From a virus (lineage: Duplodnaviria; Caudoviricetes): 62,596 bases of DNA. The stretch is from IMG/VR virus record IMGVR_UViG_3300014501_000018, positions 1 to 62,596 of that record; one strand, given 5' to 3'. Made by a program: the position numbers and the translations under genes. Below are positions 14,844-48,651 of the stretch, piece by piece. Numbering within the stretch: position 1 is the first letter of the stretch; the number at the start of each line of letters is the position of its first letter. The notes beneath the pieces are model-generated. The model was not told the origin of the DNA. It searched no databases and saw only the letters and a list, made by a program, of their open reading frames with translations.

Positions 14844-15305
14844 CTATTCCCGGAACGCGATGGCGCCAGCTAACGATCGTGCTCGCGTCCGAACAGCGTG
14901 CCCGTCATTACCTGAATTGACGATCCATTCGCCATCGCTGGACTGTCCCACGATCTGCCCGACATGATGATACCAAACGACGACAGCGCCAACATGCGGG
15001 CTCGTCGGCCGGCCCCAATGCGCCCAGTTGCGCGCGAGATTGTATGCCGTATCAGCAACGCCCTTGACCTGGCGCATGTACCAGCCGCACCAGAGCGCGG
15101 GGCGGCCATCGCTGAAATGCCGGCGGGTGAGACTCACCGCGCTTGGCTGCTGCTCACCCCAGAACCCCCATCCGGCCCAAGGTGTGGCGGCGACGGTTGA
15201 GCGGTGATGATGTGCGTAGTACCGATAGTGATGGTGCCTCGAATGAGCCGAAGCAGAACTCGTCAGCAAAGCAAAAACAAGCGCGGTGAAGAATGCCGTC
15301 CTCAT
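14844..15305 (-). CDS. Secreted CHAP/NlpC-like amidase
   Basis: Signal peptide ending ASA; WCGW catalytic Cys, HHVG His, SGN. Confidence 0.75.
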   Translation of the reverse strand: MRTAFFTALVFALLTSSASAHSRHHHYRYYAHHHRSTVAATPWAGWGFWGEQQPSAVSLTRRHFSDGRPALWCGWYMRQVKGVADTAYNLARNWAHWGRPTSPHVGAVVVWYHHVGQIVGQSSDGEWIVNSGNDGHAVRTRARSLAGAIAFRE

Positions 15306-17345: not shown

Positions 17346-18008
17346 CTAACTCGTCAAATCCAACTCCGGCTGCTCGAACGGCAGGAAGTCTCCGAAGTCG
17401 CCGAACGCCGTATCGGTGTCGCAGTCGAGATTGGCGAGCCGGGTCACGGCGCCCTGCAGCAGCACTAATTCCGGCGGCTTGAGCGCCAGATAAGCTCTTG
17501 ATCCCGTCCAGCCCATTGACTGCGAGAGCCACGCCAACTGTGCCGATTTTGCGCCGATGACCGCTTTGCACACAGCTCCCGAGCCATAGACCCCGATCTG
17601 ATAACCCGAGTTCATCAGGACAGCCTCGATCGCGGCGAAGTAGGGAAGCACGTATTGGCTGATCTGGCTGGGACTGGCATCGGTGTCGACTGCGAAATAG
17701 ATGCAGGCTCCTTTGGGAGCCCCAACCGTGGGCGCATAATTCAGACAGAACGTAGCATCACGCTTGCCAGCTTGGGCGCTGATAGCCGGAAACGCACCGT
17801 CGTGGGTGAGGAAATCGCCATACCCTTCATGAACCAAGGCGAGCCGGATACCAGCGTCTGATAGCGCCTGGGCCTCGGCCGGCTTAATGCACTTGTCGCC
17901 GGTCGGGTTGATTGCCGATAAATACCGGATGACGGTCTCGATATTATCCGCTTGCAGATGCTCGATCTGCGGCGTGGTTACTTGGTTGGTGTCTATGATG
18001 CTGGTCAT
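17346..18008 (-). CDS. Endolysin, DUF1906/GH25-like glycoside hydrolase
   Basis: TVIRYL, IYFAVDTD, GVYGSG, WLSQS.GW, CDTD. Confidence 0.82.
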   Translation of the reverse strand: MTSIIDTNQVTTPQIEHLQADNIETVIRYLSAINPTGDKCIKPAEAQALSDAGIRLALVHEGYGDFLTHDGAFPAISAQAGKRDATFCLNYAPTVGAPKGACIYFAVDTDASPSQISQYVLPYFAAIEAVLMNSGYQIGVYGSGAVCKAVIGAKSAQLAWLSQSMGWTGSRAYLALKPPELVLLQGAVTRLANLDCDTDTAFGDFGDFLPFEQPELDLTS

Positions 18009-18016
18009 TGTACATC

Positions 18017-19267
18017 CTATCGATGAATCTGTGCTAGATTTATAATTCCGCTTGTTACAATAACCCCATCAGCGCATGTGTAAGGATGAATGCCGTCAGA
18101 AGTCCATGGCGAGCACGCCGGGTAGCCGACACCTGCGTTCCATATTGAATTGTTTGTTCCATTTCCTACAACCGAAGCATCGTCAAAATAGTTTACCGCC
18201 CCGAGAGCCATGGTGAGGATAGCAGTATTAAACGCAGCTAACTGACTTTGAAAAGCCGTTACCGTCTGATTTGACGTTGTCGCCCAACCATCTGTTGAAG
18301 TTGTAAAAGGCGTAAGTGTCTCTTGAATGTTTACACCACCGCCAAGTGAATTAGCGGTAAATTCAGCCCAAATGGTTTCCGTATTAGTTTCAAGCTGAGC
18401 CGCTGTTTGGCTGCCGGCAATATCATTGTGCCCGTAATTATTAATGTCGTGCGAGCAGTATTGGTAGAGCATCTGTCGCACAGTGTTGTTGTTAACAAAA
18501 CTAACTGCACTATCGCCAGCTTTCCCCATGTTTATATAACCAAAATATGGTCCAGCGCTCGGGGCCGTAATTCCTTGATCGCCAAGGGCGGTTACACCCC
18601 CGTTAGAACCGTACTGAATGCTATCACCAAGAAGGCAAAGCGCCGGCAATGTAATGTTCGATACGATTGCTGCTGGGGTCATATACCCTAGCCCACTATT
18701 AGTTACCGAATCGCATGAGGCTGTTTGATCGCTGATACCCGATGCCCCGATGTGCATTGCGTCGCCGAGCGACAAATCAACTTGCCCGTTGTTGGCATAA
18801 ACCGCGCCGGCAGAACCGACCCAATACTGTCTGATCCAGAATTCCGCGCCATTTGGGATTCCAATATTCAGGCTGTCCGACAAGAGTAGCGGGTTTCCCG
18901 TCGTTATGTTTCCGGTGGCGGAACCGCTGAACTTTATCTGGGTGCAGGTGCCAGCGGGCCACTCTACCGAAGCTTTTATGGTGGCAGATGGAAAGGTAGC
19001 AAGAAGATCGCTTTGACCAACTTCATTCCCATCTGGCGTGGTGCCAAAATTCGGGACAACTATTTGAAGTGAGGATACTGCATTTCTGGCAAAATGCGTC
19101 GAACGTGACATTATTTGTCGGTTGGTTTGATCATTTGAGTCGTTGATGTATGATCGAGTTGCAAATTGGCCGGTGTAGCTGGATGGGCTTGCAGCGCAAC
19201 AATAATTTTGAGCTGATGCGTGACCTACTAAAAACGCGCTCAATATGATGGAGATTATGTATTTCAT
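18017..19267 (-). CDS. SGNH/GDSL esterase with signal peptide
   Basis: MKYIISIILSAFLVGHASA signal; blocks GDS, G, G.ND and DGIHP. Confidence 0.85.
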   Translation of the reverse strand: MKYIISIILSAFLVGHASAQNYCCAASPSSYTGQFATRSYINDSNDQTNRQIMSRSTHFARNAVSSLQIVVPNFGTTPDGNEVGQSDLLATFPSATIKASVEWPAGTCTQIKFSGSATGNITTGNPLLLSDSLNIGIPNGAEFWIRQYWVGSAGAVYANNGQVDLSLGDAMHIGASGISDQTASCDSVTNSGLGYMTPAAIVSNITLPALCLLGDSIQYGSNGGVTALGDQGITAPSAGPYFGYINMGKAGDSAVSFVNNNTVRQMLYQYCSHDINNYGHNDIAGSQTAAQLETNTETIWAEFTANSLGGGVNIQETLTPFTTSTDGWATTSNQTVTAFQSQLAAFNTAILTMALGAVNYFDDASVVGNGTNNSIWNAGVGYPACSPWTSDGIHPYTCADGVIVTSGIINLAQIHR

Positions 19268-19269
19268 GA

Positions 19270-20817
19270 CTAGTACGAAAATGCGTCGCACGCGCTGTTA
19301 GCAACGCTGGTTGTTCCGGATACCCCGCCGTTTCCAAGCGCGATATCAATCCATATTGGAGTTCCTGGGGTTAGGCCGATTACGTTTCCAGTTACGGTGA
19401 CGGCGCCAAACCCTCCGGAAATTGCTATATCTGTACTTTGATTCGTGCCTATGAGCGTTCCTGTAGTAGCGGCTCCATTGCTTGGCGCCGTCCCTGTTCC
19501 ATAATGTATACCGTATTGGGCACGTCCTACAGTTCCAGAAATTTGCAGAGTTAAATTGAACCCAATATGAACTCTCGCTGTGTTTGGTGTTATTGCGCAA
19601 ACGGCACCAAGCCCCATCATTAAAGCGGTAGATGATGACACGCCGCCGCTACCGGCACCTGGTGTAACTTGAATAGTTGATCCTGCAACACCACACCCCG
19701 CGCCGGCATCGACCGTGTTTCCAGTGCTGTCGAACTTCGTGCAGTCGCCAGAAACTGGCGAACCTGTCGATAATTGCAGTTTGGTTCCAGTTCCTTGCGC
19801 GCTGGCGGCCCCTCCGACAATAGAAACAGTTGCCGGAAACTGATAGATGCTCGCAAACGGCACGCCGGAATCTACAACCTTGTTGGATGTCACGCCAATT
19901 AAGTTGCCGGAAGTAATGCCACTTGTCGGCGTCGTTCCTGCGGTCAAGGTCGTGACCCCGCAGGCCATCCACGATGGCACCCCAGTTCCATTGGTTTCAA
20001 GACAACTATTGATTACCGAGGATAATCCAACAACGGTTGCCCCGGTCGATGAGTAGTAAGCAAGTTGGTTTGCGGTCCCACTCGTAACTGTGCCGCCCCC
20101 GCCGCTTGTCGTGCAGGGGCCGCCAGCGTCGACATGATTGCCAGCCGAGTCGACGCTAATGCAATGGCCGTTGGTGTAAGAGCCGTTGCCGGTTACAAAA
20201 TCGGTTGTGTTACCCGATCGGGTTCCCTGCCCGATAAGGCTTGTGCCATTGCCGACGAGAGGCAAATTAGCTGTGTAGCTGGATGGGAACGGAACGCCGT
20301 TGACCTTGCCGACAGTGGTAACGCCACCGTTCGTGATCGTCATGTCGCCAGTGATAGTCTCGGCACTCGGCCCAGCGGATGTTTGGCCTATAAGAATTTG
20401 ACCGTTGCCCAGCAGGACGCCAGCTAAGCTACCGGCTAAATTATACTGGACAGAATAAAGTGGTGCAGAAACGACAGCAATGCTTTGCGGCGAGCCGTTG
20501 ACGGCAAAATTTAACCCGCCAGTTGCACCGCCGTAATTGAACATCGAAAGAGTACCGCCTCCGGTTTGTGTTGCTCCAATACATATTTCGTTATAGGGGC
20601 CGGTGACTGGACCGCTATTCGCGCAGATGCTTGGGCCGGAAGCCGTTACGCCAATGCTGGTGAGAAAACCTTGAAACGCTGTACCACCGTCTTGAATAAC
20701 ACCGTTGGTCGTCCACATTGGGACGTGGCCGGGCGTTACGTGACCTGTTTGCTGGACCGGCTGAGCAAATATGTTTTGCGTCGTTAAAATTAAAAAAAGT
20801 GCGATCCATCTGATCAT
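19270..20817 (-). CDS. Gly/Thr/Ser-rich fibre-like protein with signal peptide
   Basis: MIRWIALFLILTTQNIFA signal; GTVTSGTANQLAYY fibre-type segment; 10 Cys, mostly in neighbouring pairs. Confidence 0.75.
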   Translation of the reverse strand: MIRWIALFLILTTQNIFAQPVQQTGHVTPGHVPMWTTNGVIQDGGTAFQGFLTSIGVTASGPSICANSGPVTGPYNEICIGATQTGGGTLSMFNYGGATGGLNFAVNGSPQSIAVVSAPLYSVQYNLAGSLAGVLLGNGQILIGQTSAGPSAETITGDMTITNGGVTTVGKVNGVPFPSSYTANLPLVGNGTSLIGQGTRSGNTTDFVTGNGSYTNGHCISVDSAGNHVDAGGPCTTSGGGGTVTSGTANQLAYYSSTGATVVGLSSVINSCLETNGTGVPSWMACGVTTLTAGTTPTSGITSGNLIGVTSNKVVDSGVPFASIYQFPATVSIVGGAASAQGTGTKLQLSTGSPVSGDCTKFDSTGNTVDAGAGCGVAGSTIQVTPGAGSGGVSSSTALMMGLGAVCAITPNTARVHIGFNLTLQISGTVGRAQYGIHYGTGTAPSNGAATTGTLIGTNQSTDIAISGGFGAVTVTGNVIGLTPGTPIWIDIALGNGGVSGTTSVANSACDAFSY

Positions 20818-21317
20818 GACAAGACAATCCCGGTCAGATAGATATCGGCTGTTGCAGCCGCACCCTGCGCGGTTGGCAGAGAAAAATAGATTGCAAGCGC
20901 ATAGGCATTATTCGGGCCGAGTACGAGCGGCAAGTTGGCGGACGAAAAACGCGCTGTGTTGGCGAACGCAGTCAGGGTTGCGTTGAGCAGCAGATTTGCT
21001 CCAATCAGAGTGGTATAGACCTGCGTATTAGCAACGAGCGGCGAGCCGCCTTTGCTTGCTGCGGGGTAAAATCCACTAGCCGCAGTTGTCAGCGATAATG
21101 ACGGATTGGTTATGATGATCCCGGTGAGTTGAAAAATGCCGATATTCGGCGGCAGTAAAATGGGCTGGTCGGTCGTCGTGTTGAAATTTGTCCCGAGCGC
21201 CGACGCTAGTACTTTGTTTGACGCGAGAGCTGGGCCGGCGTCTTGTAGGACACCATCGGTTGTCCAAGAAGCTAGGTGGCCGGGAGTAACAGCGCCGTTT
21301 TGTAGGATGGCACCCAT
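20814..21317 (-). CDS. Putative virion protein without signal peptide or Cys
   Basis: N-terminus homologous to the mature N-terminus of the 515-aa protein. Confidence 0.65.
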   Translation of the reverse strand: MGAILQNGAVTPGHLASWTTDGVLQDAGPALASNKVLASALGTNFNTTTDQPILLPPNIGIFQLTGIIITNPSLSLTTAASGFYPAASKGGSPLVANTQVYTTLIGANLLLNATLTAFANTARFSSANLPLVLGPNNAYALAIYFSLPTAQGAAATADIYLTGIVLS

Positions 21318-21322
21318 CGATG

Positions 21323-21970
21323 TTAATAAACTTCAAACCCGGAGCATCCCCCGGCGCCGATGCTCGATGTGCCGCCATTTGGTGACGCCACAGAAATATC
21401 AAACCAGTAAGCGTTTCCGATGGTGAGTCCAGTAATGAGTCCCTGTGCATCGATATAAAGAAATTGTGAAAGTATCGGAGTAACACTTTGCGTAGTGCCA
21501 AACGTAGTTTGTGCGGTAGCGGAAGCGCCGTTACTCGGGGCCGTCCCGGTGCCATACCTTCCGATGACTTGGACGTTTACCGCCCCCACACTATTAGTAA
21601 TGGTCTGCGGAAAATCAACATGAACACGAGTACTGTTTACGGGAGTCATCGTGCATCCAAGCAGGCCATACCCCATCGCTACGAACGTGCTGGAGGATGT
21701 TCCAGTTGGCGCTTGAAAATTGACGCTCATTGTCGCGCCGTTAAGTTGTATGCAACCTTTCTGGGTTGGGCTTGCAGTTGTGCACTTCGCCGTCACTGCT
21801 CCGGTGTAAGGACCGCTACCAGTGCCAGTTAGCGTAAGCGTACTGTCGGCGTTATTGAGTGACGATACGTTGGCACCGCCACTCGCGCCGCCTGGATTGA
21901 TAATGCCGTCCGCGAGTGCGGGTGAAGCAAGCAGTAAGAATGTTGCTATAAAGCTATTGATAATCGACAT
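21323..21970 (-). CDS. Short fibre-like protein with signal peptide
   Basis: MSIINSFIATFLLLASPALA signal; C-terminal domain paralogous to that of 19270-20817. Confidence 0.72.
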   Translation of the reverse strand: MSIINSFIATFLLLASPALADGIINPGGASGGANVSSLNNADSTLTLTGTGSGPYTGAVTAKCTTASPTQKGCIQLNGATMSVNFQAPTGTSSSTFVAMGYGLLGCTMTPVNSTRVHVDFPQTITNSVGAVNVQVIGRYGTGTAPSNGASATAQTTFGTTQSVTPILSQFLYIDAQGLITGLTIGNAYWFDISVASPNGGTSSIGAGGCSGFEVY

Positions 21971-22358
21971 AAATCGGATCCGAGGATGTTGCGCAGGTTG
22001 CTTGGATTGCTCCACTCGGCACATAAGGAAAATAACGCTGGTAAGAACCGCCGGGAAGCAACAGCATCGCTACTGCCTTGGTTGCCGATCCGCCATCTAC
22101 AGTAATCCAGCAACTATCCGTCGCGTTATTATTCTCAATCGTCAAAGACGCGCGGTTCGAATTAGCGGCTAAAATTTGCTGAAAAGTATTGCCAGTTACA
22201 ATTGTTGTAGAAGCGTTGATCGTTGTCTTGTTGCCAGGACACGGTTGCGTCGTCGAGAACCCGGTGGCGCTATTGTAGCAATCCAGAATGACGTTCGCCG
22301 AAGCCGCGACGGTGCCGGCCCACAATAAGAAAAATGCAACGCATAACCGCCTGATCAT
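21954..22358 (-). CDS. Small secreted beta-rich protein
   Basis: MIRRLCVAFFLLWAGTVAASA signal; 4 Cys in the mature part. Confidence 0.7.
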   Translation of the reverse strand: MIRRLCVAFFLLWAGTVAASANVILDCYNSATGFSTTQPCPGNKTTINASTTIVTGNTFQQILAANSNRASLTIENNNATDSCWITVDGGSATKAVAMLLLPGGSYQRYFPYVPSGAIQATCATSSDPIYVDYQ

Positions 22359-22633
22359 TTACGCCTCACGATAATGTTGACGGCTATGACAAAGCTTGCA
22401 TAGCCGCCCAAGCCAACGAGCTGATAGACCGAAGGGTTGTTGGGAATGATGACGTAGGAAAGCCAGAACACGGACGCGACGGTCAGGAGCGAATAAAATC
22501 CGCTGACCATAACTGCGGTTTTTTGCGAAAAAATCGCGAGCAGAACATCGACGAATTTGCTGGGATCGGACTCGGCCGCCGCAGGCGGATTATTGGGCGC
22601 GTCGTTGTCGATGACTTCGAACTGTGGCGCCAT
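22355..22633 (-). CDS. Two-TM membrane protein
   Basis: GAGGA Shine-Dalgarno; two hydrophobic helices and a basic C-terminus. Confidence 0.65.
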   Translation of the reverse strand: MAPQFEVIDNDAPNNPPAAAESDPSKFVDVLLAIFSQKTAVMVSGFYSLLTVASVFWLSYVIIPNNPSVYQLVGLGGYASFVIAVNIIVRRK

Positions 22634-22841
22634 GCCCATTATCCTCGATCGTGGCTTGGGCATCGGCCATGGTAAAGCCGTCCGAAGGATCCTCCGGTTT
22701 ACCCTTGTCCTTGGCGAGGGTAGCGTAGAGGGTCGTTAATGCCTTTAGTGCGTCTACAGCTTCTGTAAACGGCGTTGCGGCCTCGCCCGCGCGCTTGCGG
22801 ATGTCCTTGGCCAGTTCTTCGAGTTCTTGCTTGAGGGTCAT
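22590..22841 (-). CDS. Hypothetical protein
   Basis: ATGA-coupled to the large ejection-type gene. Confidence 0.6.
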   Translation of the reverse strand: MTLKQELEELAKDIRKRAGEAATPFTEAVDALKALTTLYATLAKDKGKPEDPSDGFTMADAQATIEDNGHGATVRSHRQRRAQ

Positions 22842-25789
22842 TGGGAAGGCGCCTGAAATTCCGCCTGGCCAACGCCGGCACCAATCGCACCGCCGCGTCG
22901 CATCCAATTTTGTACTGCTTGCCGTGTCATCTCGCGTCCTTGTGGATCGCCCTTCAAGCCTTTTTGCACGAAGCGCATCAGCGTCGGGCTATTCACGACC
23001 TTGGTGACAAACGCATAATATTTACCAAGCGCGGCACGTGCAAGCGGCTCGGCAATGGGCACCTTTGGCAGAAACTCGCCGCCCTTACCAAGCACCGAGG
23101 ACCATGGATGTTCCACTTTAGCCATCGCCGACATCGATTGCGCGGTGCCTTGCGCGTTCTTCGATGACAACAGGAAATCCATTTCCTTGGCGAGCGTTTT
23201 CATTTGCTCGCCGGATACGCCGGGGAACATGATGTTCTGCACCTCGGGCGAAACTTTTGCCAATCGCGTCGATGGCTCTAGCGTACCCATCAATATTCTT
23301 TGTGCCCAGACCTGACGCAGCATGTTGAACTCGGGCGACTTCTCACCGAACCGCGCACCGGCTGCCAAGATCAAATACTCGCTATTGAGAATGCGATCAA
23401 CCGCCTGCGCTGCACCAACAGTGGGCTCATAAATAAAGCCGAGCGGATCGGCTTTGCGACCTTGCGCCATCTGGCGCTGGTGATCACCCGTGATTTTTTT
23501 TATTTCTTTGTTCAATGTCGCCAGTGGATCTCGCTCGGCAGCTTCTTTAGCTGCATTGGCGGCGTCGCGCGCCTTGGCGATGATATCGGTCATGGTGTCG
23601 CCGGGGCGCACCGCGATATCGAGCTTGCCGTTGAGCATGGCAATATTTTGCGCCTGCTGTAGCAGTTTCGCCGAAGCCTCACGTCCATGCACGGCTTCAA
23701 GCATTCCGGAACGTGAGCGTGACAACACTTCTCGCGTAAATGCGTTGCCATCGATCACGTCTGGCACCAGCGATTTAGATGCCTCAAGCATCTGTTGCAC
23801 ATCGGCGGCCTTGACGCCGGCCCAAAGATTAGGACCGATCATCTTGGCAACCTTGCTCGTCAGGTCGGTGCGGCCTTCCTTGACCAGCGTGTCAAACAGA
23901 ACTTTTGGATCGGCCGGCAGCCCCGACTCCAAGCCCTTCATGACGGCCTGGATGCGCGCGTCCTGCAACGGGCGGATTTGCTCGCCGTACCATTTATCGG
24001 TAGCGTCGAGCAGTTGCGCCGCTGTCTTTAATTCTGGAACAGCGTGAGCGTTATGCAGCGCGTCATCAACGTTCTTGGCAAAAAACTTGTAGACACCTTC
24101 GCGAATACCGGGAGTCAGGTCATGATAGTCGATGTTAGACCGGAACCAGGTGCGCAGTTCGTGAAGCTGACCGAACGTCGGCTGCACCGGAGGCTTGAGT
24201 ACTTCGCCGGTTTCCTTGTCGACCGTGCCAGCAAGATCACGCAGCTTTTTTACGGCGTCGGGGTATTTTGCCTGAAACGGCTCAGGCAATTGCTGCAAAA
24301 ATTCTTCGGCAACTTTCGGCAGATCACCAATATCGGGCAAGTGCGCACCCGCGGCACGGTCGGCTTGACTGTAATAAAGTTTTGCGCGCTCGCCAATGCC
24401 CTGGCGGATTTTGACGAGCTTGTCGCCAACAGCGCTCCATAGATCGCCGCTGTTATGACCGGCCTTGGCCGTTCGCATCGCTGCGTCGACATCTTTCGAT
24501 ATGTCCTGAAACCCGACATCGATCAGGCTTTGCGCCGCCTTTCGCGATTCGGCGGCGGTGCGCTCGATCGTTGCCTGTCCCGTTGCTTGCCGCACCGTGC
24601 TGATGGCGCTGCCAAGCTGCTTCTCGGCGATGGCATCTTCGAGTTTTTTGTCGGCGATCGTCTGCGCTTCGAGCCGCTTGGCCAGTATTGCCTCACCGGC
24701 TTTCTGGGTCGACGGCGCTGTTGTCGGATCGCTGATCTTGCCCTCGGGCTTTACGCCGACACTTTCAAGGATATCGCCTGCGGTCTTTTCGTAGTGACCG
24801 GTTGCCGACTGCAGCAACGGCTTTTGCATCCGGAACGCCGGATCGAACACCTCGGCGACGTTGGCGAGATGCGGCGACTCCTTGGCCCAGGTGGAGGGCG
24901 GCACCAACACGCCCTGGTCACGCAGTTTTAGAGCAGTATCCAGCGATTCCTCGTCAGCGCCCAGGAACGAAGCTGCTGCTTTTGGCGCACCCTGCTTGAC
25001 CGCGCCCTTGATGGCGGGCGCTATGGCAGCTAAGCCGCGTCCTACCGCCGTACCAGCCCCGCCGAAGGCACCGGATAGGGCCACTTCCTCGGTTTCTTCA
25101 CCCGCTGAGCGGTCATAGACGCCCGCCAGGCCCATAATTACGTCATTAAAACCCTGCCCTGCGGCACCCCCCGCCGCGCCGCCGGCAATGGCCCCGCCAA
25201 GCGTGCCAGGGCCAGGTGCTACGGCCGTTCCAGCCGTCCCACCAGCGATCTCACCGGCAATAGAGCCAATCGTAGGGGCTGCCGCGGCGGCGATACCAGC
25301 CACAGGCGCGTCGCCAAACCCTTTGGGGCGGCGTAGCGTGCCATCGTCGTCGATATAGAGTTTGCCGGCGCGTTCCTTGACCTTGCCGGGGTAGGACCGC
25401 TCCAGCGCCTTGCGGCGCTCCTTGTCGTTGACGGCCATGTCGTAGAGCGTCTGCGCCGTAAAATCGATGCCTTCGTATTTCGGTTTCGAGCGCAGGTTGC
25501 CGTTAGGATCAAGGAATTGGGCACCTTCGGGGATAGCCTCGTACTGCTCATCGCTCTCGACCTTGTACGGCTTGGTTCGCACGTTGCCGGTCGGATCCTT
25601 GAATTTCATCCCCGGCATCAGCGCCTGATAATCATCATCGCCTTTGACAGAAGGAACCGTAACAGGATCGCGCCCACCAAGATTGCCGCGTGCGAGTTTT
25701 GCCGCCGCCTTGGTGTCGGCGTCCTGCGCCATCGCAGGCTCATCGAGCGCACCCGTTTTGTCTTTGATAAGGAGATCGTCGTCGGCCAT
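22838..25789 (-). CDS. Large internal virion/DNA ejection protein (983 aa)
   Basis: Helical and Ala-rich with a Gly-rich hydrophobic segment; last of three ejection-type genes. Confidence 0.7.
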   Translation of the reverse strand: MADDDLLIKDKTGALDEPAMAQDADTKAAAKLARGNLGGRDPVTVPSVKGDDDYQALMPGMKFKDPTGNVRTKPYKVESDEQYEAIPEGAQFLDPNGNLRSKPKYEGIDFTAQTLYDMAVNDKERRKALERSYPGKVKERAGKLYIDDDGTLRRPKGFGDAPVAGIAAAAAPTIGSIAGEIAGGTAGTAVAPGPGTLGGAIAGGAAGGAAGQGFNDVIMGLAGVYDRSAGEETEEVALSGAFGGAGTAVGRGLAAIAPAIKGAVKQGAPKAAASFLGADEESLDTALKLRDQGVLVPPSTWAKESPHLANVAEVFDPAFRMQKPLLQSATGHYEKTAGDILESVGVKPEGKISDPTTAPSTQKAGEAILAKRLEAQTIADKKLEDAIAEKQLGSAISTVRQATGQATIERTAAESRKAAQSLIDVGFQDISKDVDAAMRTAKAGHNSGDLWSAVGDKLVKIRQGIGERAKLYYSQADRAAGAHLPDIGDLPKVAEEFLQQLPEPFQAKYPDAVKKLRDLAGTVDKETGEVLKPPVQPTFGQLHELRTWFRSNIDYHDLTPGIREGVYKFFAKNVDDALHNAHAVPELKTAAQLLDATDKWYGEQIRPLQDARIQAVMKGLESGLPADPKVLFDTLVKEGRTDLTSKVAKMIGPNLWAGVKAADVQQMLEASKSLVPDVIDGNAFTREVLSRSRSGMLEAVHGREASAKLLQQAQNIAMLNGKLDIAVRPGDTMTDIIAKARDAANAAKEAAERDPLATLNKEIKKITGDHQRQMAQGRKADPLGFIYEPTVGAAQAVDRILNSEYLILAAGARFGEKSPEFNMLRQVWAQRILMGTLEPSTRLAKVSPEVQNIMFPGVSGEQMKTLAKEMDFLLSSKNAQGTAQSMSAMAKVEHPWSSVLGKGGEFLPKVPIAEPLARAALGKYYAFVTKVVNSPTLMRFVQKGLKGDPQGREMTRQAVQNWMRRGGAIGAGVGQAEFQAPSQ

Positions 25790-27459
25790 TATTGTCCCAC
25801 GATCGGCGCTTCTTCCCACGCCGGTTTATTGCCGGCCGGGCGCGTTTTGCCCGCCGCAGGAGGGTCAGGCGTCCACTTGCCGGCCAACTGATCCTCCTGG
25901 CTCTTTTGTAGCCGCTGCAGCCGTTCCTTGACTTCGCGCAGCGAGCGCAGCGTGTTGGCCGTGGTGTCACCGAGGCTCAAGCCACCGATAATGTCGTTGA
26001 TGCGATCCGCGTCCGCTGCCAGCGGGCGGCCGGAACGGTCAAACAGCAATCGCTGCGCCGCCGTGCGCAAATACTGAATGTTGCGCATGAACTGTTCGCG
26101 ATCGGTGTTGTTGCCGCCAAAAATATTCTCAACGCGCTCGCCCAGTCTCGTCGCCTTGCCAGCCAAGCCCGCCGAAGCCGCGTGGGTCTCAAGAACCTGC
26201 ACCGCGTCATCGATCGTCTTGTTCGCTTCACCGTACTGCGTCACGTTGCGCTCGACATCGATGCGCTTGCTTGGCGTCATGGTCGGTTGCGCCGCATCGG
26301 CAACCTCGCGCGAGGCACGATCATACTCGGCATCAATCTCTTCGTTAGTCGCATTCGGGTTCTGCGCCTTGAACTCAGCAATCCGACGCGCGATCTCTTT
26401 CTGCTTGGTTGGTGCGCCACCCACGCTGCCTGCTCGCCCAGCAGGATGGCTGATCAAGAAATTCGCCTGATCCTCGGCAGTTGCGCCGGGATGCTCTAAT
26501 CGGAATTGTCGTAGCAAATCTTCCTGCAAATTCTTGTTGCCCTCGCCGATCCCCTGGAGAATGTCTAAACGTGCTCGCGCCTTTTCCTGCGGCTTGGCGT
26601 CGGGGTGCTCTTTATCCCAGGCGTTCGATTCGGCGCTGAATATGGTGCGCCGGATATCGAAGTCCTCCCAGTCCTTTTGAGCTTTCATCACGCCTTGCGC
26701 CGCATTGACCTGCGCCGCCTGCATCTCGATCACCTTGTCGTCCATCCCGGCATCGAGCAGCGCGATTACTTTCTTGTTATCAAACTGCGCCGCGATGGCC
26801 ATCTGCTTGACCTTCCACGACGCTAGGTCGGTGCTCATGATCTTGCCAGCGTCGTCGAACATCTCGCGTTCCATGCCGAAACGCTTCAACGCCAGATTGG
26901 TGTTCTCTTTCCAGGCGTCATAGGCCGACTGGTACGCCTTATCATCGTGCGCGTGAATCGCCATCATCGCTGCCGCCGAGGCGTTCAAAGCGGAAGTCAG
27001 CGGCGTCTTGGTAAAAGCCGAAGCAAGAAGCCCGAAGATCGAGCCAATGGACGCAAAGCTCTCGATCGGGCCAGTCTCTCGCTCTTTTCGTTCCTGATCG
27101 GCGTTCCACATCGGCGGGATGGAGTTGGCGGACTGGCTTTCGGCCGAGAACGCTTTCTCCATCTGCTCGCGGTCGCGCGCCATGCGGCCATTGATCTCGC
27201 CGAACTGCTTTTGCTCGGCGGCGCCGCGCTCGCGCTCGATACCGGCGAGGCTGTCTGTCAAGCCTTTGGTCGCGGCCGGATCGAAGCGCTTGAGGAAATC
27301 GGTGGTGTAGGGCGAGTCGTCCTTGGTTTGCCCGCTGCCCGAAGCGGGCTCGGCATTATAGATATCGCTCGATTGCCCGCGCGGGGGCGGCAGCACGAGT
27401 TTCTTGCCCGAGGGGGTTGTTGCGGTATCGTCCTGATCGTCGGTAATCGGTTCAGGCAT
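25789..27459 (-). CDS. Internal virion/DNA ejection protein
   Basis: Helical 556 aa; position in the podovirus-like gene order. Confidence 0.65.
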   Translation of the reverse strand: MPEPITDDQDDTATTPSGKKLVLPPPRGQSSDIYNAEPASGSGQTKDDSPYTTDFLKRFDPAATKGLTDSLAGIERERGAAEQKQFGEINGRMARDREQMEKAFSAESQSANSIPPMWNADQERKERETGPIESFASIGSIFGLLASAFTKTPLTSALNASAAAMMAIHAHDDKAYQSAYDAWKENTNLALKRFGMEREMFDDAGKIMSTDLASWKVKQMAIAAQFDNKKVIALLDAGMDDKVIEMQAAQVNAAQGVMKAQKDWEDFDIRRTIFSAESNAWDKEHPDAKPQEKARARLDILQGIGEGNKNLQEDLLRQFRLEHPGATAEDQANFLISHPAGRAGSVGGAPTKQKEIARRIAEFKAQNPNATNEEIDAEYDRASREVADAAQPTMTPSKRIDVERNVTQYGEANKTIDDAVQVLETHAASAGLAGKATRLGERVENIFGGNNTDREQFMRNIQYLRTAAQRLLFDRSGRPLAADADRINDIIGGLSLGDTTANTLRSLREVKERLQRLQKSQEDQLAGKWTPDPPAAGKTRPAGNKPAWEEAPIVGQ

Positions 27460-28575
27460 TTAGGCCGCCGCTGCCAACGTCGTACCTGCGCCGCCAATCG
27501 AGATTTTCGTACCGCCACCCAACGCCGCCGCCATGCTGGCGATCGACTGCATGAGCTGATTATTGTTGGCAGTATCCATATTGATCAGCGCTTGATAAAT
27601 CTGTTCGGAAAGGCCGGTCGAGTTGAGCCCAGCGCTGATCAATTGCGTGCCGGTCGTTGCCAATTGCTGTTCAAGCTGGCCGGCAAGAGCGAGACCGTTC
27701 ATATCGGCTCCGCTCAGTTCTTGCGCCAACGCACTGTTTTGCGTCGGATTGGTGTTCTCGCCATTGGCGGCGTGGTTCTGAATAATGCGCGCCTTGGCGG
27801 CCTGCACCGCCTCGGTGACTTGGGCTTGTTGCCCAGGAGGGAGCGTGCCATTAGTCAGGTACTGCGTCAGTTGTTCGCCGGAAGCCGTCAGCGCCGCGCC
27901 TTGTGCCTGGAGGCCAGGGGCCTCGGCGGCGAGTTGCTTGGCGTTTGGATCGGTTTGGTTGCCGCGCAGCACGTCGAGACCCAGACCTGCACCAGCCGCG
28001 AGAATGCCAAGCGGGTTTTTGGTGAGTGAGCTAACCGCACCAGTTTCGAGTTGGCTGAGAAAACTGGGTGCACTGGTCGCCGCACCAACGTCATTGGTGA
28101 TGTCGCCAGCCGCGACGGCGCTGTCAGCGAAGCCGGGAACGCTTAAAGTGCCAACTTGAGCCGCGGTATTGGCAGCCGCACCGGCTGTTGCACCAAGAGG
28201 GGCAGCGGTGTTGATCGCGGCGAGGGCGGGATCAGTTGCAAACGCCGATGCGTCGTCAGCCGTCAAGCCCAAGGCGCTAAGATCAAGTCCTCCGGTGACA
28301 GCAGTAGCTGCATCAGCCGTACCCGCAGCCGCGCCGCCAGCCAGCAAATCGAGCGGCGCACCAACAGTCGAGTCTACGGCAGTCGCCGCGCCAAGTCCAC
28401 CCAAACCGCCAGCAAGCCCGAGGCCGCCAAGTGCCAGCCCCGCGCCGCCGATCAATTCGGGAATTGTGTTTTTGCCGCCGATATCTTTCTGCGTATCAGA
28501 AAAAATATTCGACGGACTAAGATCGTTGCCGAGGTTGCCGGTATTGCCTTCAAACAAGTCGGTCAGGAACGACAT
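27460..28575 (-). CDS. Gly/Ala-rich ejection (pilot) protein
   Basis: GGLGLAGGLGG and Q-rich helices; follows the GNAT-like gene. Confidence 0.65.
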   Translation of the reverse strand: MSFLTDLFEGNTGNLGNDLSPSNIFSDTQKDIGGKNTIPELIGGAGLALGGLGLAGGLGGLGAATAVDSTVGAPLDLLAGGAAAGTADAATAVTGGLDLSALGLTADDASAFATDPALAAINTAAPLGATAGAAANTAAQVGTLSVPGFADSAVAAGDITNDVGAATSAPSFLSQLETGAVSSLTKNPLGILAAGAGLGLDVLRGNQTDPNAKQLAAEAPGLQAQGAALTASGEQLTQYLTNGTLPPGQQAQVTEAVQAAKARIIQNHAANGENTNPTQNSALAQELSGADMNGLALAGQLEQQLATTGTQLISAGLNSTGLSEQIYQALINMDTANNNQLMQSIASMAAALGGGTKISIGGAGTTLAAAA

Positions 28576-29033
28576 CAGACCCTCGCGAACTGTTGCTGGC
28601 GCGTAAAAATGCGGCCCAGCTTTTCCTTGATCGTCTCGTGTGGCACATTGGTTAGTTCTTCAACAATGATGATCTCGGCACCGAGATTTTTTGCCCAGCG
28701 CTTGAACTCGTCGTAGAACCCCGCCGCCTCGGCAACATGATCCTTGTTCTCCGGGTCCTCTACCAACACGAAACGCTCGCGCACGATCGGCTTATCCGCG
28801 AGGCCGTTTGCCCGCTGCATCTCCGCGAGCGCAACCGAGTGATCTTGCGTCAAAAACAGATGCTCGTTGGTGTCGACCATGCCGCGAAGCCATCCGCCCA
28901 AGCGTTGCTCCGGCAGTTCGAGCGCCGTGACCAGCCGGGGAATGAGCCAACCACCGTGGCGGGACAGATCGCCCAGCTCAAAACGCCGGATCGCGGGGAT
29001 TTCAATGCCTACGCGCTGGGGTGCCAACATCAT
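28575..29033 (-). CDS. GNAT-like protein preceding the ejection genes
   Basis: IRRFELGD...FKRWAKNLGA pattern; syntenic position typical of podoviruses. Confidence 0.5.
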   Translation of the reverse strand: MMLAPQRVGIEIPAIRRFELGDLSRHGGWLIPRLVTALELPEQRLGGWLRGMVDTNEHLFLTQDHSVALAEMQRANGLADKPIVRERFVLVEDPENKDHVAEAAGFYDEFKRWAKNLGAEIIIVEELTNVPHETIKEKLGRIFTRQQQFARV

Positions 29034-29398
29034 GCAATTCCTAAAAGCCGGGAAGCGATAACGTGCTCATCGGAGTTGAAACTGATCCACTCCCGCAACT
29101 GCTCCGGGTCGCGCCAGTCTAAATCCAAAAGGTTATAGCCGTCTATACCCAAAACAGCATCCATCTGGATGTGCATGATGGAGTGCTGATAGAGCCATTG
29201 GTCAAGGTTATCAGGGTCTAACGGGTCCAAAGGGAAGATTGTCAGGCTCGTTGGCGGGGGCGTCGTGGCTGGCGGCACAGGGGTTGAGGTCTCGTAGACC
29301 CGGCGCACGATATCGCGATGATTGGCCATATGCGCGAACGACCACCGCCTGACTTCATCGGGCGTGAGTGGTGTTTGCACGATCTCCGAGAGCGCCAT
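29030..29398 (-). CDS. Hypothetical protein with repeated W..H...H helices
   Basis: WSFAHMANH, WLYQHSIMH, WISFNSDEH. Confidence 0.65.
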   Translation of the reverse strand: MALSEIVQTPLTPDEVRRWSFAHMANHRDIVRRVYETSTPVPPATTPPPTSLTIFPLDPLDPDNLDQWLYQHSIMHIQMDAVLGIDGYNLLDLDWRDPEQLREWISFNSDEHVIASRLLGIA

Positions 29399-29401
29399 CG
29401 C

Positions 29402-31696
29402 TCATCCTCGGTACGAAACGCGCGGGTCGTTCTGGATCATGGCGCTCACCAACGACACATCGGCCTCGTTGGTCTTTATCGTCATCCCGGTGAGCACGCC
29501 TTGCTGCCCCACGGCTTGTGGCGGCGTTACGAAATAGCCGGTACCTGACGGGCTCGGGATCGTGTAAGGCTTTGCATTGTAGAACGTCACTCCGGTCGAG
29601 CCGTTGATGCCGACCGAATCGATGTTTGCAATAATGTTAAGACTGCCGGCGACATTGTAGTTCCACACCGACCAGAAGCGGCCCGTCGCCTTGCTGAATT
29701 GATAACCGCCAGGCTCGTCCCATAGCCGGGATTGCACGAGTTTCTGGAAGCCGGTCGACGGCGTGCTGAACATCGGCTTGATCACCAGTCCATCGGTGCC
29801 CCACGCCGTCAAGACCGAGTTGATCTCTTGTGTTGCGATAAAGGTCAGCGGGCCAAAATCCTGAACCGATGCGTACCACTCCTTGCCGTTCCAGATCAGA
29901 AGTTTGTTGACCGTGGTGTTACTCACCGGATCGATGATTTGCGCCAGCACCATCCAGATGCGCTTGGAGAACACCGTCGCCTTAGCCGCTGAGAGCTGCG
30001 TAAGACTGCCAAAATTGGCGACGCTGCCCCATACGCCGTCCAAAGCTTCGCTGACTTTCTGCAAGGCCGAGCCGCGGCTGACATGCACGCCGATGGAGTT
30101 GGCGAGAACCAAGTCCTGCCCGCGCGTCAGGACCGAGTAGGGATAGGGCGAGCCGATCTCGGGGTCGGCGTTCTGGTTGGTGAATGTCGTCGTGGGCGGG
30201 CTGCCCGAAGTCGTAACACCCGAGATGTAATTCATCGACGAGTCGGCGACCAGATAAAGGAAGCCATTGGTGTTGACGAGGCGGATGTAGCTGACACGCA
30301 GGAAACTATCGCCCGAAGTAAAATTGCCGCCACCGTCCGACGTTGCAAAATTGGTGAACGATCCTGGCGCTCCAAAATAGACCGTAGGACCGTTGGCGAT
30401 CCAGGCGCGGCCTTGATAGGTCTCGACCGTTGTGCCACTGACGCCGAAAGGCGCCAAAGTAACTGTGCCCGCGGCGGTCTCGGCCACGTCGGCGATGCTT
30501 AATGTCGGCGCAACATTGCTGCCATATTGGCCGCCATTCGTTATAAGTACGGACGAAATGGAGCCGTTGGTTATAATCGGAGAAAAAGCCGCTTGCGTGA
30601 TGATGCTGGCACCGCCGCCCGATGACACGATGGAAGCCGTATCGCTATAGCCAGAACCGTGAGCAACAATGGACACACTCGATACGTAGTAGTCCCCGAT
30701 GTCGGTAATTGTTGCGACAGGGCTGGGTGAGGCGCCGCGATAAAAACCAGAAAAGGTTATGCTTACGGATGTCAATGAACCGTTGGTGATAAACGCCGTG
30801 ACATTCGCTTGGTTTTGCGGCGTGTTGCCGCCCGAAACCGTTATTACCGCATAAGGTGAATATCCACTGCCCGCCGCGATAATACTAGCGCTGGTAACTT
30901 CGTACTGACTGCCGACAAGAGTGGCGAGCAAATTGACCGATGCGCCCGACCCAACTGCATGAGACATTATTGCTGTGAGAGAAGCGCCCGAACCCGCAGC
31001 CGTTCCGCCTGAAAATATGAGGCTTACATTCTGGCCGGCGAGATAACCCGAGCCGGGATTTATAATCGAAACGCCTGTGACAACGCCATTAGCGATAGAA
31101 GCAGCAAACATGGCACCCGTACCAGATCCACCCGATGCGTTAACAGATGGGACTGTCTGATACCCCGAACCGGGATTCGTCAGTGTGACAATTGGCGAAA
31201 GTGATCCTGCTTCGTAAACAAGTGCCCCATCCCAAATCCAATAACCGTTGGTTTGGTTGGCGACGATGAGCAGATAAGTTTGCCCCCATTGGGAAAAACC
31301 GATATTGGTTATTGCGGGGGTCGTAATTGTGCCCGGCCCAAGAATTTGAGTCGTGATTGCCGTACCAACTGTATTGACGGTTTGCACCGAGCCGTCAGAG
31401 AGGAAATAAACGGCGTATTCGGTTGCACCAATATTATAGAAGCCGAACAGAACGATCGTTCGGCCACCACTGAATGCAGCGCGTAACTGCGTTCCGCCGC
31501 CGGGGAGCGTCCGCAGATTGCGTGGTGCGACAGGCATGAAGCCGTCGATCCAGTAACACATCTCGTCGGGTACACCGGCTCGCGTTGTCGACGTGTTGAT
31601 GCCGCTGAATTTCTCCATGATCTGCGGCGCCGGGAGAGGCGGCGTAAAGGGATTGCCTTGAGGTTCTTCGGCTTTGGGGGGGTTGGCTAGGGTCAT
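29402..31696 (-). CDS. Tail nozzle/tubular protein B-like with inserted GSGY repeats
   Basis: FSGINT near the N-terminus, beta-rich, located after the adaptor genes. Confidence 0.65.
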   Translation of the reverse strand: MTLANPPKAEEPQGNPFTPPLPAPQIMEKFSGINTSTTRAGVPDEMCYWIDGFMPVAPRNLRTLPGGGTQLRAAFSGGRTIVLFGFYNIGATEYAVYFLSDGSVQTVNTVGTAITTQILGPGTITTPAITNIGFSQWGQTYLLIVANQTNGYWIWDGALVYEAGSLSPIVTLTNPGSGYQTVPSVNASGGSGTGAMFAASIANGVVTGVSIINPGSGYLAGQNVSLIFSGGTAAGSGASLTAIMSHAVGSGASVNLLATLVGSQYEVTSASIIAAGSGYSPYAVITVSGGNTPQNQANVTAFITNGSLTSVSITFSGFYRGASPSPVATITDIGDYYVSSVSIVAHGSGYSDTASIVSSGGGASIITQAAFSPIITNGSISSVLITNGGQYGSNVAPTLSIADVAETAAGTVTLAPFGVSGTTVETYQGRAWIANGPTVYFGAPGSFTNFATSDGGGNFTSGDSFLRVSYIRLVNTNGFLYLVADSSMNYISGVTTSGSPPTTTFTNQNADPEIGSPYPYSVLTRGQDLVLANSIGVHVSRGSALQKVSEALDGVWGSVANFGSLTQLSAAKATVFSKRIWMVLAQIIDPVSNTTVNKLLIWNGKEWYASVQDFGPLTFIATQEINSVLTAWGTDGLVIKPMFSTPSTGFQKLVQSRLWDEPGGYQFSKATGRFWSVWNYNVAGSLNIIANIDSVGINGSTGVTFYNAKPYTIPSPSGTGYFVTPPQAVGQQGVLTGMTIKTNEADVSLVSAMIQNDPRVSYRG

Positions 31697-31861: not shown

Positions 31862-32552
31862 AAAATGCGAAGAGTGCCAGCAAGCATTCGTCGCGCATCG
31901 CCCCGATAAACGTTTTTGCTCACGAAAGTGCTACCGCAGGCAGTACGATCGGCATCCCGCCGACACTCGAAACTCGCCGCGTGATGCCGTTTGTGAAGTG
32001 TGCCAAACTCCATTCGTAAAAAACAAACGGCACCAAGTTTATTGCTCAAGCGAGTGTTACAAAAAAGCTTGGCCCGTACTAAACCGAGAAGCGCATAACG
32101 TCGCTCAACGACGCAAGCGTTTAAAACAGCCCGAGTTATTCCGCCAGCGCGACACTGTTTATCATAGGAAACATCGCTCCAAGTTAACCACGGCCTATCC
32201 ATGGGCGTATCTCTTCAAATCCCGAAAAGCGGAAGCTAAGCAAAAAGGAATACCCTTCGCACTCGATAATGAATGGGCGGCGCCCCTATGGGCGCGCGGT
32301 TGCTCCATTACCGGGCTGCCTTTCCAGCCGAACGCTGCGCAAGGCCCATGGCCTTTTTCGCCGAGCATCGACCAAATTAAACCGGGGCTTGGATATACAA
32401 AAGAAAACGCTCGTTTCATGCTTTGGGGTGCCAACGCGCTAAAAGGGGCAGGCAGCGATGCTGATATGTATGCCATCGCAGAAGCCATCACGAAAGTACG
32501 CTACCGATGTGCTGAAAAATTTGTTGAATCGCTCCTAGCCCTCCCAGCATGA
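31836..32552 (+). CDS. Free-standing His-Me finger (HNH-like) endonuclease with two N-terminal Cys repeats
   Basis: C..C...F...FCS..C twice; C.ITG.PF...SPSIDQIKPGLGYTKEN......N.LK. Confidence 0.75.
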   Translation: MKNEKQINKKCEECQQAFVAHRPDKRFCSRKCYRRQYDRHPADTRNSPRDAVCEVCQTPFVKNKRHQVYCSSECYKKAWPVLNREAHNVAQRRKRLKQPELFRQRDTVYHRKHRSKLTTAYPWAYLFKSRKAEAKQKGIPFALDNEWAAPLWARGCSITGLPFQPNAAQGPWPFSPSIDQIKPGLGYTKENARFMLWGANALKGAGSDADMYAIAEAITKVRYRCAEKFVESLLALPA

Positions 32553-33492
32553 AGGGCAAAAGGAATCTACCATACGGATTGGTGACTCGCCCGACTCGCG
32601 CCGAGTGAGAATATATACCTAGCTGTTTTTCAAACAAATCCAAATGAAATTTTGCCGCGTTATAGTTGTTTAATTCCAAAAAACCAAGATGAGCAGCAAA
32701 GTAACTAATTGCATCAGTCCACGGATCAGGTATTACCTCATAATCCTGATTAGTTTTTAAGTCTTGCGGGAGACAATAACAGTCTAACTCATACTGATAC
32801 ACTTGCGACGGTAATGGATAACAGTAAAAACTGCCGGACGTGCCTTGACCGTACTGTGAAGCGAAGCTCGGTACATAGGAAAATTGGTACGGATACTGGC
32901 GTATTTGCGCCTGGTAGATAGAAAACGAATAGACGGGCAGTGAATACCTGTAGTTCGCATATATAATTGAGATTCCTTGTACCCCGAATACAGATTTTAC
33001 TCCAGGATTTCCTCCCAAAAACACGCCCGAAAACGGATATACTTCTTGCCCGGCGTTCAATTGATTGATCGGCCCAGTCTGCAACGTCACCGAAGCGCCA
33101 GTGCCAGTCGCATCCGTAATTGTCGCCAGCGGCTGAAAATAACCCGAACCACCATACGTGATATCGACGGCCGCGATCGTCCCGCTCTGCACAATTGCCG
33201 AAGCGGTTGCTTGCGCGCCCAACGGGTTCGCGCCCGTACCACTTGGAAAGTCCGGAGGCGTAATCGTGATCGTCGGCGAATTGCTAAAGCCGGTCCCACC
33301 GGCAATGACGCTCGCGGTCACAATCGGGGCCGACACCTGTGTCAGCACGCGGATGCAATAGGTACGCATCGCCACTTCGCGTCGAGCTCGATTTATGTAA
33401 TTGACTAGGTTCTCCGGATTGATCAAATCCTGTTTGGTCTCACGCAAAAATTTCTGCGTCGTTTTCCAATAATCAAACAGAGTAGCCATCAA
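32488..33492 (-). CDS. Head-tail adaptor/tubular protein A-like, paralog 2 (GSGY insert)
   Basis: YINRARREVA...GQEVYPF...IPDPWTDAISYFAA. Confidence 0.7.
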   Translation of the reverse strand: MMATLFDYWKTTQKFLRETKQDLINPENLVNYINRARREVAMRTYCIRVLTQVSAPIVTASVIAGGTGFSNSPTITITPPDFPSGTGANPLGAQATASAIVQSGTIAAVDITYGGSGYFQPLATITDATGTGASVTLQTGPINQLNAGQEVYPFSGVFLGGNPGVKSVFGVQGISIIYANYRYSLPVYSFSIYQAQIRQYPYQFSYVPSFASQYGQGTSGSFYCYPLPSQVYQYELDCYCLPQDLKTNQDYEVIPDPWTDAISYFAAHLGFLELNNYNAAKFHLDLFEKQLGIYSHSARVGRVTNPYGRFLLPFMLGGLGAIQQIFQHIGSVLS

Positions 33493-48422: not shown

Positions 48423-48640
48423 TGCTCGACCCCCATTTTCCAACCTGCATAAGCCGGATATCGCTTATCCGACTGGAACTCACGACCACGATCGAACCAG
48501 CTTAGCGGATTATCCTGCGCTAAATGAAATGCGCCGCGGCTTCTGACATCCTTCCAAGTGCCTGACGCTGCCCAGCCGCACTTGCACGTCGCAACGTGGT
48601 TGCGCGCGTCGGTGCCCTTCCTATAACTCGTCTCGTGCAT
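48419..48640 (-). CDS. Small zinc-binding hypothetical protein
   Basis: H..CKCGW...H. Confidence 0.6.
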   Translation of the reverse strand: MHETSYRKGTDARNHVATCKCGWAASGTWKDVRSRGAFHLAQDNPLSWFDRGREFQSDKRYPAYAGWKMGVEQ

Positions 48641-48651
48641 GGCCTACCCTT

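Follow-up and report, generated by a model that had tools for sequence, protein, structure and literature searches.

The window analyzed here covers all 62,596 bases of a virus record (IMGVR_UViG_3300014501_000018 in IMG/VR), which is podovirus-like and has one long block of minus-strand genes. At positions 18017-22358 it holds a module of five genes, all on the minus strand, for proteins of 134, 215, 167, and 515 amino acids (aa) and a 424-aa SGNH-type esterase (Table 1). The 515-aa protein, a candidate tail fibre with an apparent export signal, is the main subject of this report. A preliminary description of the locus had placed these genes directly after the ejection genes and had proposed that receptor-binding virion parts encoded there leave the cytoplasm through Sec. 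The genes and their coordinates are as it described, and they do follow the ejection-type genes, with a conserved 102-aa membrane protein gene in between that precedes the module throughout the clade of related phages described below.

Leader peptides and cysteines in the module

Four of the five genes begin with predicted leader peptides, as had been noted before. The predicted cuts separate MIRRLCVAFFLLWAGTVAASA from a mature start of NVILD in the 134-aa protein, MSIINSFIATFLLLASPALA from DGIIN in the 215-aa protein, MIRWIALFLILTTQNIFA from QPVQQ in the 515-aa protein, and (MRRIFVLV)MKYIISIILSAFLVGHASA from QNYCC in the esterase. The four leaders share a short n-region that is mostly basic, a hydrophobic core free of charges, and a cleavage site of the AxA type; that of the 215-aa protein has no basic residue unless an upstream start is used. 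Leaders were called throughout by a heuristic of our own (a hydrophobic core with small residues at −3/−1) and by eye, not by SignalP. The heuristic flags 7 of the 97 open reading frames (ORFs) of at least 60 aa in the window, and all four module leaders are among the seven, which is more than chance would provide (∼5e-5 by hypergeometric arithmetic on 4 of 7, 97 ORFs, and 5 genes). A lipobox with Cys at +1, of the Llp/Cor type, was found in none of the four, and a scan of the region gave no credible one.

The mature parts of the 134-aa, 215-aa, and 515-aa proteins and the esterase contain 4, 4, 10, and 8 Cys, the even counts reported earlier, and those of the 515-aa protein lie at positions 65/79, 219/235, 272/286, 359/375, and 407/510. 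The 167-aa protein has neither leader nor Cys and the 764-aa nozzle-type protein a single Cys, also in agreement with the preliminary description, and the five proteins encoded between nozzle and module (993, 556, 371, 152, and 122 aa, those of 371, 556, and 993 aa being ejection-sized) have none. It had further been stated that no signal-less long fibre gene is evident elsewhere; a six-frame scan of the window bears this out, placing the fibre N-terminal motif discussed below only in the 167-aa and 515-aa genes.

An N-terminal domain shared by leader-bearing and leaderless proteins

The 515-aa protein has no match in Pfam, PHROG, NCBIfam, or PADLOC or in a sequence search of the PDB, and its architecture was worked out from its relatives. 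Among 96 of these, 81 exceed the threshold for N-terminal hydrophobicity. In an alignment of 25, Gln19 (the residue after the predicted cut), Cys65, and Cys79 are invariant, and a domain of ∼110 aa straight after the leader (the N-domain) is conserved, while the remainder, made up of repeat, shaft, and tip parts, varies in both sequence and length. An AlphaFold2 (AF2) model has a leader helix at residues 2-12 and an N-domain with pLDDT mostly of 74-92. The N-domain contains the motif QxGxVTPGHxxxWxTxGVxxDxG, which occurs in 105 proteins from related loci and from the set of relatives, 67 of them leader-bearing and 38 leaderless, although the leader class includes one short form that was placed there only by an upstream extension of its ORF. 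The motif starts at residue 21-31 in the leader forms (later where the ORF extends upstream) and at residue 4-11 in most leaderless ones, the later cases being ORFs that extend past the likely start. Since it stands directly behind the leader in one class and at the very N-terminus in the other, both classes would have the same free end once the leader is cleaved.

This is a large family. A profile of the N-domain, with the leader trimmed off, retrieved 1465 cluster representatives (E <= 1e-3), 1038 of them at E <= 1e-10, from among 1.84 billion proteins, and the best 150 of the 1465 range from 131 to 1328 aa. The family as a whole comprises more than 1000 clusters at 50% identity and has no Pfam or PHROG name; a search of the protein atlas for look-alikes of the N-domain yielded nothing beyond weak leads and phage clusters without a name. 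No member turned up when 185,579 species genomes of bacteria and archaea were scanned by pattern on two occasions, which marks it as a phage family. When viral contigs were scanned with a pattern from the 25-sequence alignment, 56 loci were obtained, many of them on contigs of 60-68 kilobases (kb). These loci have capsid, adaptor, nozzle, and ejection-type genes in common with the window, and are therefore taken as a clade of uncultured phages. That these are proteins of the fibre type is indicated by two leader-bearing relatives with a Peptidase_S74 domain, the chaperone found in spikes and fibres of the endosialidase type (L018, 1320 aa, E 3e-14; L011, 445 aa, E 1e-10); a Pfam search found none in the proteins of the window.

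A leaderless isoform of the 515-aa protein is unlikely. From codon 2 up to the motif, the gene offers no in-frame ATG, GTG, or TTG as an internal start. A start at the conserved Val was rejected, as the codon in the window is GTC and GTG is not enriched among relatives (7 of 30 with this Val, against a background of 27%).

Seven leader-bearing relatives of the 515-aa shaft (P0003, P0010, P0033, P0036, P0051, P0060, and P0078) lack the QSG...VTPGH motif and have instead a …TAAQLN… or …PTAAQWN… motif directly behind the leader, which suggests a second class of exported fibre N-termini.

Leaders and cysteine pairs vary together

The association between leaders and cysteines was assessed in two sets, in which a few metagenomic proteins may be truncated. 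The first comprised 72 non-redundant long proteins from the loci, with 63 leader and 9 leaderless forms. In 54 of the 63 leader forms both the Cys65 and the Cys79 column hold Cys, and in another 7 a Cys is shifted by 1-3 columns; one of the remaining two has no pair and the other no second column. Cys is absent from these positions in all 9 leaderless forms (7 have Ala, Gly, Ser, Thr, or another residue, and 2 lack part of the domain). For the second set the best 150 of the 1465 representatives were taken, of which a regular expression placed 132 and left out 18. Leader and Cys pair occur together in 120 of the 132 and are both missing from the other 12, with no mixed case.

Furthermore, the number of Cys in the mature part is even in 114 of the 120 leader forms (binomial p 6e-27) compared with 4 of the 12 leaderless ones, and median Cys density is 1.57 and 0.96 per 100 aa, respectively. 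Ala stands at −1 in 117 of the 120 (the cleavage picker favours Ala) and Gln mostly at +1. In a tree of the N-domain that leaves out the Cys columns, four changes of the leader label are required, at least two of them forced by well-supported branches, and the Cys pair follows each. The conserved leaders, the covariation of leader and Cys pair, and the even Cys counts together give strong support to the view that the leader forms are exported and oxidatively folded.

It could still be proposed that the leaders are not used for export, and that the proteins fold in the cytoplasm with the N-terminus kept or otherwise removed, their disulfides forming after release. The fibres of all described tailed phages assemble in the cytoplasm, and some leaderless relatives are rich in Cys (14 in L047, 18 in L045). 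Phage Milano is reported to have disulfide networks in virions without leaders. Across very divergent sequences, however, what is conserved here is only the physico-chemical character of a leader, with a hydrophobic core behind a basic start and with Ala at −1. The N-domain has its Cys pair only alongside a leader, and the parity signal is confined to leader forms, so that this proposal appears improbable.

Smaller still is the likelihood of a gene-calling artefact, in which the true starts would lie downstream of the hydrophobic stretches. The 215-aa gene does have two possible starts, and the collection's own gene call begins the esterase at Met61 (364 aa), downstream of the leader. Homologues of the esterase nevertheless conserve the sequence between leader and Met61, which makes the leader-bearing form likelier, and by eye 7 of 23 relatives have Sec-like leaders and one more a Tat-like leader. 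The start of the 515-aa gene overlaps the preceding stop (ATGA) with no other in-frame start before the motif, and leaders recur in hundreds of independent relatives. Neither unused leaders nor wrong starts fit easily with what was seen in covariation and parity.

Evidence for a possible place on the particle

The most telling evidence on what the N-domain binds comes from gene position. In three loci (L034, L036, and L051) leaderless carriers of the N-domain are encoded between the adaptor and nozzle genes. For such a protein the only possible partner is a cytoplasmic one, namely the particle. The same slot holds leader-bearing, Cys-rich proteins of 1092, 632, and 936 aa in L030, L031, and L032, respectively; the 515-aa gene of the window lies outside this slot, after the ejection-type genes. 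The L032 record is complete (62,086 bases, terminal repeats), and both a profile search and a six-frame motif scan identify the leader-bearing 936-aa gene as its sole N-domain carrier.

In all, the N-domain profile was run on 12 related records, of which 10 are at least 90% complete. Five of these ten gave a single match, leader-bearing each time (G001, G003, G004, and G005, which are 100% complete with terminal repeats, and G006, 90%; G001 was additionally scanned for the motif in six frames), and the other five had a leader-bearing form plus a leaderless short form. The N-domain therefore looks like a tail dock that leader-bearing homologues keep, and it is receptor-binding proteins docked on the virion that characteristically combine a conserved N-domain with a hypervariable C-terminus. 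The earlier proposal of exported receptor-binding virion parts is strongly supported as far as export and oxidative folding are concerned; a role in the virion is supported by comparative genomics for the 515-aa protein only.

A conserved gene of 234-286 aa lies directly after the nozzle gene in some relatives (L062 12279-13139, minus strand; L034 12705-13448; L041 1367-2071) and has no counterpart in the window. Its product has the N-terminus ...TFANL...LD.NF.A.G and may be a needle or short fibre.

The observations on gene position also bear on the main alternative, a less likely one, in which the exported proteins never enter the virion and instead act on the envelope of the infected cell or are released in soluble form at lysis. 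Possible roles would be masking or destruction of the receptor, by de-acetylation through the esterase and occupation by the tips, that block superinfection and the loss of progeny on debris; another possibility is that the infected cell presents the fibres on its surface, in the manner of Bdellovibrio. Such roles would agree with the lack of a docking N-domain in the 134-aa and 215-aa proteins and the esterase, with the make-up of the 215-aa protein, a tip domain with no dock, as expected of a soluble competitor, and with the many additional genes for Sec- or Tat-type leader proteins that relatives carry in this region. The phage also encodes a sugar epimerase, and the order of leader, N-domain, fibre, and swappable tip strikingly matches that of the surface-anchored mosaic adhesive trimer (MAT) fibres of Bdellovibrio. 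The base composition of the module is a further point: GC content at third codon positions (GC3) is 0.45-0.56, compared with 0.62-0.75 in the neighbouring tail and ejection-type genes (22838-31696), as is often the case in accessory genes, a difference that would fit a module exchanged between phages.

For proteins with the N-domain, this alternative has to contend with the leaderless versions encoded between adaptor and nozzle, whose partner must be the particle, and with the leader forms that occupy the same core slot and are the only N-domain carriers in four complete genomes. The conserved N-domain with a hypervariable C-terminus is, moreover, typical of docked receptor-binding proteins, and no route across the outer membrane is evident.

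The other proteins of the module

The 167-aa protein appears to be a short fibre. Its residues 4-31 (21225-21308) carry the motif, with 57% identity to residues 21-48 of the 515-aa protein, and it is conserved across the clade, with homologues in 39 loci. The AF2 model (pLDDT 86.3) consists of the motif and a beta-sandwich, for which the best fold in the PDB is the Bdellovibrio Bd2133 fibre tip (8ond, E 8e-4; 8ok3, TM 0.53 on the target). Its best matches among predicted structures are unnamed proteins of uncultured tailed phages, with TM up to 0.85 on the target.

The three remaining leader-bearing proteins have no docking domain. The 215-aa protein consists of a leader, a Gly-rich linker, and a tip domain with 34% identity to that of the 515-aa protein (BLASTP E 3e-14), Cys positions included. 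The 134-aa protein, which matches phrog_22789 (E 5.8e-5), is a member of an abundant family of small exported proteins, as judged from 335 relatives and a leader-like start in 112 of the 120 listed; leaders are thus kept among homologues here as in the 515-aa family. The esterase matches phrog_8480 (E 9.7e-44) and has SGNH blocks I, III, and V (GDS at 222, GHND at 287, DGIH at 399); its relatives carry PF13472, and the protein of the window itself has no Pfam match at E 0.01. Two longer relatives, P0110 and P0115, are leaderless. With no docking domain, nothing ties these three proteins to the particle, and they are more likely soluble exported helpers that act on surface polysaccharide or receptor of the host than fixed parts of the virion. 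The possibility raised at the outset, of decoys, receptor-masking proteins, or enzymes that de-acylate surface polysaccharide, stays open for them above all.

Tat-like leaders (TRRLFLRGAA..., SRRRLLISAA...) were seen by eye in the variable region of relatives (L007 11097-12452, L052 6849-8633, L057 7352-9139), so both export routes seem to be used. In the window, an 81-aa ORF at 56192-56437 (minus strand) with no Pfam family starts with MIPRRQFIKNLIAFTATAPAIVRA, a leader that is Tat-like in appearance.

Comparison with known systems

Several described systems have features in common with the 515 family. The fibres T7 gp17 and SU10 gp12 and gp13 are leaderless and are assembled in the cytoplasm. 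Like them, members of the family combine an N-terminal part that is conserved with a distal part that varies, and the resemblance to SU10 extends to an SU10_adaptor domain in the adaptor of the window and, in relatives, to a fibre gene between adaptor and nozzle. They differ from these fibres in having a Sec leader and paired Cys, and there is no sequence match or significant fold match between them. In SU10, the adaptor provides six docks for long fibres and the nozzle six for short fibres. Two such sets of docks would leave room for both the 167-aa short fibre and an exported long fibre.

By architecture, the nearest described system is that of the MAT fibres of the predatory bacterium Bdellovibrio bacteriovorus, which have trimeric shafts with swappable tips, with or without an S74 chaperone (PMC10769870). 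In both cases a signal peptide is followed by a conserved beta-rich N-domain and then by a fibre with variable tips, and the 167-aa protein folds like the Bd2133 tip; the likeness is one of architecture. MAT genes are chromosomal and their products are described as probably anchored on the predator's own surface (PMC10769870), whereas the 515 family is found on phage contigs only, inside tail operons.

Other phage proteins are known to use export signals. SAR endolysins are one example, with export through N-terminal signals.

Further Sec-using examples include endolysins with signal peptides and the exclusion proteins Llp of T5 and Lom and Bor of lambda. These have in common with the module that they are phage-encoded, have N-terminal export signals, and are made late or beside receptor-binding genes, but they are small enzymes or lipoproteins with no fibre architecture or docking domain, and the module has no lipobox. 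Virion-borne SGNH esterases such as G7C gp63.1 de-acetylate surface polysaccharide. The esterase of the window resembles them in its GDS, GxND, and DxxH blocks and its PHROG 8480 match, and differs in its leader and in the absence of a recognizable particle-binding N-terminal part. The coat proteins of filamentous phages are inserted by Sec/YidC before assembly, and in this respect they too reach the virion only after passage through the export machinery of the host; filamentous assembly takes place at the membrane during extrusion, whereas here a tailed, lytic-type particle would be built in the cytoplasm.

Full-text searches of the literature, judged from listings and abstracts, turned up no description of a tailed phage whose tail fibre or tailspike has a Sec leader. 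From function and position as they appear in these genomes, we would on balance class the leader-bearing proteins as podovirus tail fibres with an export-dependent route of maturation.

A proposed two-compartment assembly route

We lean, with modest confidence, towards the 515-aa protein being a Sec-exported tail fibre that is disulfide-bonded in the periplasm and joins the particles once a holin opens the inner membrane. The precursor would cross the inner membrane through SecYEG and be cleaved before Gln19 by signal peptidase I, after which the host Dsb system would form five disulfides and the fibre would trimerize in the periplasm. The esterase and the 215-aa and 134-aa proteins would be exported by the same route. 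Meanwhile, DNA-filled particles would be built in the cytoplasm, bearing at most the leaderless 167-aa short fibre. Opening of the inner membrane by the holin would mix periplasm and cytoplasm inside a still-closed outer membrane, and the N-domain of the fibre could then dock on the tail adaptor or nozzle. The leaderless endolysin of the window fits a holin of the large-hole type, which would let the compartments mix. The joining of fibre and particle is something that we infer, as are addition at lysis and the unarmed state of immature virions, both of which formed part of the preliminary description.

A bolder reading, at about even odds, is that a large clade of uncultured short-tailed phages of 60-68 kb builds its host-recognition fibres in a compartment separate from that of the other particle parts, with Sec export of the fibres (Tat for some of their neighbours), oxidative folding in the periplasm, and docking only after the holin merges the two compartments.

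Several points weigh against the proposed route. Phage Milano reportedly forms disulfide-rich virions with no leaders. The 167-aa protein could fill the docks first, as it has the same docking motif and is made in the cytoplasm, and three of the four leader-bearing proteins of the window (134-aa, 215-aa, and esterase) have no N-domain. For the 515-aa protein, AF2 gave a model of only moderate quality overall (pLDDT 60.5), and a fold search of the PDB with it gave nothing at E <= 0.001. With only four gains or losses of the leader, the covariation rests on few independent events, and a sign test on the leader/Cys switches in the tree is not significant. Finally, DNA and protein searches of the deposited-phage collection, including one with the 515-aa protein, found no cultured relative.

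The significance of the route lies in its contrast with textbook assembly of tailed phages, which is wholly cytoplasmic. Here, host-recognition parts seem to be folded outside the cytoplasm, by a route not known for tailed phages, and a fibre family with leader, cleavage site, and disulfide pairs under joint selection would represent a periplasmic branch added to the assembly pathway. If this is true, it would be the first step in tailed-phage morphogenesis to depend on host export and Dsb machinery, making Sec, signal peptidase, and Dsb dependency factors of the phage, and particles would be non-infectious until the moment of lysis. It would also explain how phages field disulfide-stabilized receptor-binding proteins, and provide a rule for annotation, namely that a signal peptide does not exclude a structural fibre gene. 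Leader-bearing and leaderless versions of one domain side by side would offer a ready test bed. Even if the proteins are exported and never join the virion, they would form a new class of phage-encoded, exported, fibre-like proteins.

Genome context and other observations

Coordinates of the features discussed are collected in Table 1. Among deposited phages, only two metagenomic records and Hydrogenobaculum phage 1 resemble the window in terminase or capsid. In an annotated relative (MW202753) the fibre, encoded at a different position, is of the ordinary kind, with an S74 domain and no leader.

Table 1. Positions of the module genes, the domains of the 515-aa protein, and other features in the window.
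Feature	Position	Strand	Remarks
134-aa exported protein (predicted)	21954-22358	-	Leader 22296-22358; 4 Cys in mature part
215-aa protein	21323-21970	-	Leader 21911-21970; alternative start 22024 gives 233 aa
167-aa leaderless, Cys-free putative short fibre	20814-21317	-	N-terminal motif and beta-sandwich tip
515-aa leader-bearing tail-fibre-type protein	19270-20817	-	ATG overlaps stop of 167-aa gene
Sec-type leader of 515-aa protein	20764-20817	-	Residues 1-18, ending ...NIFA before QPVQQ
Conserved fibre N-domain of 515-aa protein	20440-20763	-	Residues 19-126; motif; Cys65/Cys79
C-terminal tip domain of 515-aa protein	19276-19776	-	Residues 348-514; common to 215-aa protein
424-aa SGNH-type esterase	18017-19291	-	Leader 19211-19291; 416 aa if ATG at 19267
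Large terminase	41805-43721	-	37% identity to terminases of two metagenomic phages
Portal-sized gene	39565-41292	-	
Major capsid protein	36313-37353	-	
334-aa tail adaptor	32488-33492	-	Likely fibre dock; PF24175 SU10_adaptor, E 8.2e-11
764-aa nozzle-type tail protein	29402-31696	-	1 Cys; weak PHROG tail matches; homologues in 18 loci
102-aa membrane protein	22355-22663	-	Homologues in 34 loci, always upstream of variable genes
220-aa leaderless endolysin-type glycoside hydrolase	17346-18008	-	PF08924, E 2.9e-29; PHROG endolysin families
153-aa exported CHAP/TIGR02594-like protein (predicted)	14844-15305	-	Far end of lysis genes; fifth leader-bearing gene of the genome

The first gene past the module is that of the 220-aa endolysin, and small membrane proteins come next. 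The 153-aa protein has a His-rich mature N-terminus, a weak CHAP/TIGR02594 match, and homologues in 4 loci; it probably serves the lysis cassette as an exported peptidase acting on the cell wall. A scan of the lysis region of the window found no credible o-spanin lipoprotein.

Within 47712-53053 on the minus strand lie genes for a serine recombinase of the resolvase type (47712-48443) and for an NAD-dependent sugar epimerase/dehydratase (48666-49655), beside large ORFs with no Pfam family at 50260-51549 and 52022-53053. From its gene content this region is a possible cassette for remodelling surface sugars, and the lifestyle is perhaps temperate.

ARAGORN reports a 94-base tRNA-Cys at 59777-59870 (minus strand), inside a primase/helicase ORF (58862-61237); Rfam finds no tRNA there at the gathering score, so the call is probably false. 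At the right end of the record, an ORF at 62336-62563 (minus strand) consists of PRSLPRSM-type repeats, which may reflect a tandem DNA repeat near the genome end.

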